Origin: Escherichia coli
Lineage (GTDB): Bacteria; Pseudomonadota; Gammaproteobacteria; Enterobacterales; Enterobacteriaceae
Length of the DNA stretch: 397 nucleotides
Assembly: GCF_003334315.1 (NCBI RefSeq)
Contig: NZ_QOWR01000135.1
Reading direction: 5' to 3' (one strand)
Position 1 is the stretch's first letter. Each line of letters starts with the position of its first letter. Below the pieces are notes generated by a model. That model had not been told where the DNA came from. It made no database searches and saw nothing but the letters and a program-made list of their open reading frames with translations. Shown one piece after another: positions 1-397 of the stretch. Both the position numbers and the translations under genes were made by a program.

Positions 1-159
1 CAGCCTGCCGTGACGGTCATACCGGTAAAGATAGTGCGCGTCACGGGCGATACGGTTATCCGGCCACATGCTGAGGGTGCTGTCCGGGTGCAGCTCCGGG
101 TCGGGCAGGCGGTTACCTGCCGGGTCTGTGGCATACGGGATATCAATGCCCAGGTTACA
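1..159 (-). CDS. Rhs-family YD-repeat protein, internal core fragment (partial; 5'-truncated, 3' end continues beyond window position 1); probable orphan rhs cassette or rhs pseudogene
   Basis: Reverse-complement frame with codons 159-157 down to 3-1 is open for 53 codons: [53 protein letters not shown]. It ends in the Rhs/YD-repeat signature Y-R-Y-D-x-x-G-R-L and closely resembles, from memory, an E. coli Rhs core segment (...[40 protein letters not shown]). GC about 63% versus about 29% in the adjacent spacer. The same frame stays open upstream to 186 ([11 protein letters not shown]-rich, no Rhs similarity) and is closed by TAA at 189-187; the open stretch 186-1 has no ATG/GTG/TTG before the Rhs-like sequence (first in-frame ATG is at 69-67). 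Confidence 0.85.
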
Positions 160-321
160 TATAATAATAAGAGCAATTAACTTAATTTATTTGTTTATAA
201 TGCGCTTACTTAATACAAACCATTGAATATACCCTCCTGACAGAAAATAAAGCCATATTATTATCGCCATAATATACTTACTATCAATCCTTACGCCAAT
301 AATGTCTGATACAGTCCCTAT
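160..321. other. AT-rich spacer (about 29% GC) between the Rhs core fragment and IS1
   Basis: Hand count gives 46 G+C in 161-320, against 95 G+C in 1-150. The composition changes abruptly around 150-160, where the Rhs-like sequence ends. Confidence 0.7.
187..321 (-). pseudogene. 3' remnant of an ORF interrupted by IS1 (hypothetical small hydrophobic protein; possibly an Rhs-associated immunity gene)
   Basis: Minus-strand frame starting at 321 is open for 44 codons (IGTVSDIIGVRIDSKYIMAIIIWLYFLSGGYIQWFVLSKRIINK) and stops at TAA 189-187. The other two minus-strand frames hit stops within their first 12 codons (TAG 320-318 and TAA 293-291; TGA 286-284). The open frame abuts the IS1 end at 322, and within IS1 the same frame has a stop at 339-337, so it is not read out of the element. 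Only internal ATG is at 270-268, with no convincing Shine-Dalgarno. Confidence 0.3.
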
Positions 322-344
322 GGTGATGATGCCAACTTACTGAT
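322..344 (+). repeat. IS1 left terminal inverted repeat (IRL, about 23 bp)
   Basis: GGTGATGATGCCAACTTACTGAT at the element boundary. Contains an IHF-like site on the complementary strand (about 333-345, CAACTTACTGATT read as YAANNNNcTGATW, 5/6 in the conserved hexamer); IHF binding within IS1 ends is established knowledge. Confidence 0.8.
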
Positions 345-356
345 TTAGTGTATGAT
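329..356 (+). promoter_or_regulatory. insA promoter (PIRL), partly within IRL: -35-like ATGCCA (329-334), 16-nt spacer, -10 TATGAT (351-356)
   Basis: Hexamers read directly from the sequence; -10 TATGAT is 5/6 to TATAAT. The IS1 transposase promoter is known to overlap IRL and to be repressed by InsA binding there. Exact hexamer assignment is my inference. Confidence 0.45.
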
Positions 357-376
357 GGTGTTTTTGAGGTGCTCCA

Positions 377-397
377 GTGGCTTCTGTTTCTATCAGC
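377..397 (+). CDS. insA: IS1 InsA (transposition regulator / N-terminal part of the InsAB' transposase), first 7 codons only
   Basis: GTG start at 377-379 preceded by Shine-Dalgarno GAGGTG (366-371, 5-nt spacing) and an in-frame TGA at 365-367. Codons GTG GCT TCT GTT TCT ATC AGC give (M)ASVSIS, matching the InsA N-terminus MASVSISCPSC. Frame ends exactly at the window edge. Confidence 0.85.

Follow-up and report, generated by a model that had tools for sequence, protein, structure and literature searches.

A 397-nucleotide stretch of Escherichia coli DNA (contig NZ_QOWR01000135.1; the whole stretch is called the window here) carries a fragment of Rhs core that sets in abruptly and has no translation start, raising the question of what this fragment is and how it came to lie there. 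An earlier note, made from the sequence alone, had taken it for the 5'-truncated part of an orphan rhs-CT cassette, in which the 3' portion of a conserved core is fused to a variable C-terminal domain, here called the tip. We find that window 156-1 is very probably the 5' end of the known K-12 pseudogene ybfO, the displaced orphan C-terminal tip of the rhsC element. The orphan ybfO/ybfC is an already known and annotated feature, and the peculiarity of the window is a private copy of IS1 in the adjoining gene ybfB. Coordinates are window positions unless a locus label is given, and features are read on the minus strand.

The Rhs fragment is the 5' end of ybfO

Window 1-321 was identical or nearly identical in K-12 MG1655 (L003), STN0717-20 (L001) and three further genomes (L002, L011 and L012), called the matching genomes below. 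Against K-12 MG1655 the identity was 100%, covering the 3' end of ybfB, a spacer and the 5' end of ybfO. The gene order in the matching genomes is kdp, ybfA, rhsC, ybfB, a partial RHS coding sequence (CDS) corresponding to ybfO, ybfC, the H-rpt/ISAs1 remnants ybfQ, ybfL and ybfD, and ybgA. The same annotated context (rhsC, ybfB, ybfO or partial RHS, ybfC, H-rpt/ISAs1) was present in each of the five, with a full-length rhsC of the same clade and ybfB lying upstream of the orphan.

The Rhs frame had been described as open through the GC-rich segment, and it was indeed open on the minus strand from 186 to 1. A tblastn search with the RhsC core gave a single significant match to the window, running from 159 to 1 and corresponding to RhsC residues 893-945 (90.6% identity, E = 5.6e-31). 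The GC content falls from ~0.6-0.74 in window 1-150 to ~0.2 in 150-225. At the DNA level, window 1-141 aligns with an internal segment of K-12 rhsC (L003 5278-5418) at the identity given in Table 1 and with K-12 ybfO at 100%. Over window 142-156 the agreement with rhsC drops to the value listed there, and further upstream it is at chance level.

The breakpoint was located with the help of strain E2865, which carries the same tip on a full-length rhs gene at this locus. Between rhsC and ybfO of K-12 there are 39 diagnostic sites. E2865 is rhsC-like at the first seven of these (window 154-142) and ybfO-like at all of the remaining 32 except one, the polymorphic window position 78. Because the full-length gene is of the rhsC type at the seven differing sites, window 142-156 is junction rather than core, and the true breakpoint lies at 141/142. 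The earlier note had placed the abrupt onset near 150-159, which is close enough: annotation at the protein level starts at 156, where the partial RHS CDS predicted by PGAP begins (L001 9156), while the K-12 annotation begins ybfO at the ATG at 69-67. At position 78 itself, the window and K-12 have T (Thr in DSTLS) and L001 has C (Ala), a pattern that would fit gene conversion from one core copy to the other.

An open frame would by itself also fit a full-length rhs gene that a nonsense mutation or frameshift had interrupted immediately upstream of window 156. The tblastn search with the RhsC core, however, gave no significant match to window 142-397 in any frame (best E = 0.44), nor any in K-12, where the 803 nt upstream of the corresponding region were covered (best E = 3.2). 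The upstream DNA is instead ybfB (31% GC), followed by the RhsC tip. A continuation of the Rhs frame upstream had been named beforehand as the observation that would count against an orphan, and these searches did not find one; we therefore reject the broken gene as practically excluded.

Signals for translation initiation are missing from the fragment. The frame reads ATT AAG TTA ATT GCT CTT ATT ATT ATA TGT after the TAA at 189-187, in agreement with the AT-rich, start-less codons described earlier, and it contains no ATG, GTG or TTG between this TAA and the ATG at 69-67. The 25 nt before that ATG, GCTGCACCCGGACAGCACCCTCAGC, hold no Shine-Dalgarno-like motif, and judged by its sequence the ATG is not a credible initiation site. 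The orphan thus lacks initiation signals of its own, as is required of an orphan module. The TAA, which the earlier note had not assigned, is the stop codon of ybfB. This stop and the orphan rhs share a reading frame, with ten sense codons between them, probably by coincidence.

Table 1. Features of the window.
Feature	Position	Strand	Remarks
True rhs core, 5' part of the orphan fragment (ybfO)	1..141	-	98.6% identity to internal K-12 rhsC; runs on left of position 1
First in-frame ATG, nominal K-12 ybfO (b0703) start	67..69	-	K-12 ybfO start L003 7221 = window 69
Junction-proximal 15 nt, not true core	142..156	-	8/15 positions match rhsC; inside PGAP partial RHS CDS
AT-rich 30-nt spacer, ybfB stop to orphan	157..186	-	GC 0.167
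ybfB 3' part, codons 65-108 and stop TAA (189-187)	187..321	-	100% identity to K-12 ybfB nt 193-327
IS1 left end: terminal inverted repeat and insA start	322..397	+	75/76 bases match K-12 IS1B and IS1C

Two open reading frames (ORFs) run on the plus strand antisense to the Rhs core, at 10-180 (56 codons) and 68-226 (52 codons). Both are regarded as by-products of the GC-rich core, with no sign of being genes. Rfam gave no match within the window.

The core fragment ends at a variant of the DPxGL motif

In the matching genomes the ybfO frame comprises 506 codons and is intact over 1,521 nt, with 354 core residues followed by a tip of 152 residues; the window itself carries the first ~52 core codons. 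The remainder of the core therefore lies left of position 1, where it had been predicted. The ybfO core is ~95% identical to RhsC 893-1249 (338/357 residues). It contains the Pfam domain RHS (PF03527) and covers profile positions 908-1261 of the 1261 positions of the NCBIfam model RHS_core NF041261 (E = 4e-230). Its score of 767 bits is below the full-length cut-off of 2000 bits, marking it as a fragment rather than a full-length member of the family.

A full-length rhs gene sharing this core had also been anticipated in the locus, and rhsC upstream is that gene. From window 141 onward, rhsC and ybfO are ~96% identical in DNA sequence over ~1.03 kb. The identity collapses at the core-end motif PVQYIDSMGL (L001 8092-8121), which sits exactly where the homology between the two genes stops. 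A boundary of the DPxGL type had been predicted, and the motif found is a D-S-x-G-L variant, with Ser in place of the consensus Pro. The D[S/P/A]xGL variation follows the tip family across Escherichia, Salmonella, Phytobacter and metagenome homologs, and is also seen in full-length genes. The base composition of the region is a mosaic typical of Rhs elements, with a GC content of 0.61 in each copy of the core and of 0.41-0.43 in the tips of RhsC and ybfO; ybfB has 0.31 and ybfC 0.37.

The tip belongs to a rare family and is followed by ybfC

Directly after the core-end motif, ybfO continues into the AT-rich tip of 152 aa, which is unrelated to the tip of RhsC. It is followed by ybfC, whose product has 189 aa and whose start lies within the ATGA that ends ybfO (a 4-nt overlap), with GAGAGGA just before it as a ribosome-binding site of its own (AGGA). 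A C-terminal domain with a small ORF downstream was what the earlier note had foreseen; with the 3' core fragment and the absence of a start, the complete orphan rhs-CT architecture that it proposed is present in the matching genomes. From this arrangement, ybfC is presumed to be the immunity gene for the ybfO tip. The N-terminus of YbfC (residues 1-25) resembles a signal peptide and is the only hydrophobic stretch of the protein.

The tip family is rare, with 28 cluster representatives among 1.84 billion. Its members share conserved cysteines and the motifs SPYDYxxYCxxW, PGxDxKT, GYxCxxPYYFPEL and DDxxE, together with a basic tail ending in RK. No match to the tip was found in NCBIfam, nor in Pfam with either the single sequence or an alignment of 18 members, and searches with the single sequence and with a profile returned no relative in the PDB. 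A first AlphaFold model built from 7 sequences was unusable (pLDDT 41.8). A second, from 18 sequences, reached a pLDDT of 63 with a core of ~80, in one of five models only, and a Foldseek search of the PDB with it gave no fold match (best E = 3, TM <= 0.27). NCBIfam likewise holds no family for YbfC or YbfB, and a PDB search with YbfC gave only noise. The name 'putative deoxyribonuclease RhsC' on one tip homolog is a database label and was not taken as evidence of activity. Any novel toxin had been expected left of position 1, which is where the tip lies in the matching genomes; as a module it is not new, being already annotated as ybfO/ybfC.

The same tip occurs attached and displaced at one locus

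Among the 5,426 complete E. coli genomes surveyed, 2,661, about half, contain the boundary that runs from ybfB through the spacer into ybfO (window 100-260). DNA encoding the tip was more widespread, occurring in 3,537-3,571 genomes, often within features called 'RHS element core protein', a designation reserved for full-length cores. The tip was at least 99% identical in 2,954 of the 3,571.

E2865 provides the attached state. Between ybfA and ybfD, the same locus as in K-12, it has a single rhs gene of 4,200 nt with the ybfO tip, followed by ybfC; a K-12-type RhsC tip, ybfB and the orphan are all missing. The length of this gene is exactly the sum of the part of rhsC ahead of the repeat (2,679 nt) and of ybfO (1,521 nt). 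Its tip is 100% identical to that of the orphan over 451 nt, and the encoded protein has 1,399 aa and its own start. In AR_0006, a tip of 97.8% identity and a downstream ORF of 189 aa occur on a full-length rhs adjoining nikR. A primer specific for rhsC of enterohemorrhagic E. coli (EHEC) EDL933 (PMC7216683) falls within the ybfO-tip sequence, from which it follows that the 'RhsC' of O157:H7 carries this tip.

More distant relatives are arranged similarly. On the metagenome contigs L005-L007 (6550-11250), a tip of 72% identity and a YbfC homolog follow a collinear, vgrG-linked rhs. In Phytobacter ursingii (L004), the tip/YbfC pair forms a second orphan behind a main rhs whose own tip is DUF4329. 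The YbfC homologs that follow the tip homologs in Phytobacter and in the metagenome loci are 60-67% identical to YbfC. Together with E2865 and AR_0006, these loci indicate that the tip and YbfC travel together, whether attached or orphaned. In L005, L006 and L007 the rhs gene is split by frame changes that are not the same in the three assemblies, so that errors of sequencing seem likelier than a pseudogene. Downstream on these contigs lie three more orphan core ends (~11279, 13203 and 14624).

Searches of protein clusters had pointed to a tip that is only ever an orphan, all carriers being short. This was rejected when DNA searches found full-length carriers, which are hidden in protein clusters because the conserved core groups them under representatives with other tips. 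Three variant carriers depart from these layouts: in P0029 the N-terminus of an ISAs1/H-rpt transposase is fused in frame to the ybfO tip, and P0030 and P0032 are RhsC-like with large internal core deletions between YD repeats, P0032 retaining the true N-terminus. Such carriers may have arisen by genuine rearrangement or may reflect repeats that were collapsed in assembly.

IS1 has inserted independently in ybfB

A further point absent from the earlier note is that ybfB is split by an IS1 element, whose left end occupies window 322-397. YbfB has 108 aa with about three hydrophobic segments and, by the position of its gene, is the presumed immunity protein for the RhsC tip; in the window, IS1 follows codon 64. 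The terminal inverted repeat, GGTGATG.TGCCAACTTACTGAT, and the start of insA are present, and the right end and target duplication lie beyond the window. The GTG of insA is at 377-379 on the plus strand, directed away from the Rhs frame. Matches of 100% to window 322-397 occur in 364 E. coli records that carry the annotation IS1-like transposase.

The junction between ybfB and IS1, CCCTAT/GGTGATGATGCC at 321/322, involves an IS1 variant with A at position 8. The exact CCCTAT/GGTGATGATGCC junction was absent from the complete E. coli genomes surveyed, from GTDB representative genomes and from JGI metagenome contigs. The nearest junction, in 17 complete E. coli genomes, matched at 96.7%; it is shifted by 1 bp and has a different IS1 end variant. 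In L001, where PGAP annotates 'ybfB, missing N-terminus' and the IS1 transposase starts at L001 9376, a clean target duplication of 9 bp, CAGTCCCTA, borders IS1 on both sides within ybfB. Since the junctions are 1 bp apart and the IS1 variants differ, the IS1 of the window represents an insertion independent of that in L001. A 9-bp duplication, AGTCCCTAT, is predicted beyond its far end.

Altogether, IS1 was found at at least four positions in the AT-rich segment formed by the RhsC tip and ybfB (L001 9321-10089, L002 9223-9990, L011 ~1942-2706 and L012 ~2075-2842). These copies are independent insertions that share one orientation, insA being directed away from ybfO. The annotation of L001 and L011 shows an intact rhsC beside a split ybfB, its presumed immunity gene.

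The proximity of IS1 to the fragment, 165 bp from the breakpoint (window 322 versus 156), might suggest that the start-less piece arose when IS1 truncated an rhs gene. Yet the breakpoint is the same in K-12 and most of the 2,661 boundary genomes, where ybfB is intact and IS1 is absent, other strains sharing the breakpoint have IS1 elsewhere, and the clean duplication in L001 is that of a simple insertion. Truncation by IS1 is refuted by the IS1-free genomes and the L001 duplication, and we assign it a negligible probability.

The IS1 of the window probably stops transcription that reads through from rhsC, and it probably abolishes the function of ybfB, cutting YbfB after residue 64 of 108. The 3' part of ybfB contains two pairs of sigma-70-like hexamers on the minus strand, TTGATA-16-GATAAT (287-260) and TTGGCG-17-TATATT (299-271), which could drive transcription of ybfO-ybfC once IS1 blocks read-through. 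Such matches are common in DNA of 20-35% GC; four were found here against 1.1 +/- 1.1 expected, two of them on the relevant strand.

Proposed origin and function of the orphan

Four observations bear directly on the origin of the orphan: the missing initiation signals, the 1.03-kb direct repeat, the cohesion of tip and immunity gene, and the occurrence of both states at one locus. According to a published model for Rhs elements, a new tip arrives together with core sequence, recombines into the resident gene and pushes the old tip downstream (PMC2935791). By analogy, we propose that an incoming RhsC-CT with ybfB, borne on core sequence, would have recombined into the resident gene, shunting the ybfO tip downstream by C-terminal displacement. 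The allele pattern of E2865 favors the attached state as ancestral. As displaced, the orphan would be translationally silent as a delivered toxin, while ybfC, through its own ribosome-binding site, could give immunity against neighbors deploying the ybfO tip. RecA-type recombination between the 1.03-kb core repeats would delete RhsC-CT, ybfB and, in the window, IS1, and would thereby recreate a full-length rhs armed with the ybfO tip. The rhsC and ybfO copies of the repeat are offset by ~1.87 kb. Orphan rhs-CT/rhsI modules have been viewed as a reservoir of toxin and immunity diversity (PMC3150448), and recombination of an orphan onto the main rhs gene has been described in Salmonella, as cited in PMC7043789.

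Several points weigh against this proposal. The window ends at position 1, and the tip and ybfC are known solely from other genomes that match it. The direction of the event is unproven, and the 5' core of E2865 is 2.7% diverged from that of K-12 rhsC. With Ser in place of Pro in the core-end motif (DSMGL), autoproteolytic release of the tip is only putative. Finally, a Salmonella orphan tip is expressed, from internal promoters and a CTG start (PMC7043789), so that calling ybfO silent may be wrong.

This last point leads to a different function, one that would add to the role as a reservoir. With an internal promoter and a non-ATG start near the end of the core, YbfO-CT could be made from the orphan in the cytoplasm and, together with YbfC, behave like a toxin-antitoxin pair. 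In Salmonella Typhimurium, transcription starts 89 nt upstream of the sequence coding for PxxxxDPxGL, and initiation at a CTG gives a toxic product, for the main rhs as well as for the orphan (PMC7043789). The ybfO frame is likewise intact over its whole length, its tip is 100% identical to the deployed copy, and the promoter-like hexamers at 287-260 and 299-271 would suit such expression. The signal-peptide-like N-terminus of YbfC, however, points to immunity and toxin action in the periplasm and fits poorly with a cytoplasmic toxin-antitoxin pair, and the number of promoter matches must be read against the low GC content noted above. We consider an expressed cytoplasmic toxin improbable. Literature retrieved with 'ybfO' mostly concerned other subjects (Bacillus ybfO, YbFeO3); in one survey of E. 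coli promoters, (ybfOC) is listed as an upstream unit and no ybfO promoter is given.

It is also conceivable, and a possibility to be taken seriously even though we do not favor it, that the rhs part is an inert relic and that ybfC alone is maintained, as an orphan immunity gene, with core and tip persisting because the displacement was recent. The own ribosome-binding site of ybfC is in keeping with this, as are the existence of decayed or rearranged carriers (P0029, P0030 and P0032) and the low diversity of the tip, owing to which the intact ybfO frame is no proof of selection. The idea of orphan immunity has been discussed (PMC3150448). On the other hand, a direct repeat of 1.03 kb with 96% identity is an efficient substrate for homologous recombination, selected or not, and attached versions at the same locus mean that both states occur within the species, as the displacement model would have it.

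A bolder extension of the displacement model concerns both the tip and IS1. The tip may be a toxin of undescribed fold and activity that acts in the periplasm, a notion built on the signal-peptide-like N-terminus of YbfC, which suggests the site of action, and on the conserved cysteines and motifs, the rarity of the family and the absence of a Pfam, PDB or fold match. At the same time, IS1 in ybfB might uncouple the orphan and ybfC from rhsC transcription, remove immunity to the RhsC tip and so select for recombination that swaps the tips. We offer this combination tentatively and think it rather unlikely to hold in full.

Significance

As a feature of the genome, the orphan matters little: ybfO/ybfC is annotated and has long been recognized as belonging to the rhsC element, and the diversification of polymorphic toxins has a textbook example in orphan Rhs tips. 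The value of the locus lies in offering the attached and displaced states of one tip at one locus in one species, with the breakpoint mapped to the base (141/142), and in showing that the toxin family of the ybfO tip is still uncharacterized. It also carries a caution, in that clustered protein databases suggested that the tip is never found on full-length Rhs and a DNA search gave the opposite answer.

Comparison with known systems

The closest counterpart of the window is ybfO (b0703)/ybfC (b0704) of K-12, downstream of rhsC-ybfB, with the same breakpoint, spacer, ybfB 3' end and gene order. The difference is that ybfB is interrupted by IS1 after codon 64 in the window and intact in MG1655.

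At greater distance, the orphan cdiA-CT/cdiI modules of contact-dependent inhibition (CDI) are analogous, being start-less tips with a demarcation motif and a cognate immunity gene, arrayed behind a main gene (PMC3150448). They differ in the delivery protein, CdiA, and in the VENN motif, and bear no sequence relationship to ybfO.

The orphan rhs of Salmonella Typhimurium (PMC7043789) has the same layout of a main rhs, its immunity gene, an orphan with core homology and an orphan immunity gene, and recombination onto the main gene is documented there. Its tip is unrelated, its locus is linked to a type VI secretion system (T6SS), that of SPI-6, and internal expression has been shown there. The ybfO locus, in contrast, lies between ybfA and ybfC and has no vgrG.

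The published orphan rhs-CT/rhsI modules (Poole et al. 2011, PMC3150448; Jackson et al. 2009, PMC2935791) share with ybfO/ybfC a 3' core with a variable tip, the absence of initiation signals, a small ORF afterwards, a full-length rhs of the same clade upstream and the attachment of the tip in other strains. They differ in that the ybfO core ends in DSMGL rather than DPxGL and in that the toxin and immunity roles of ybfO/ybfC are putative. The attached form is represented by the full-length RhsC of E2865 and, according to PMC7216683, of EHEC EDL933, which has the same site, tip and ybfC as the orphan. In E2865 the tip is joined to a protein of 1,399 aa, and the locus has no K-12-type RhsC tip, no ybfB and no orphan.

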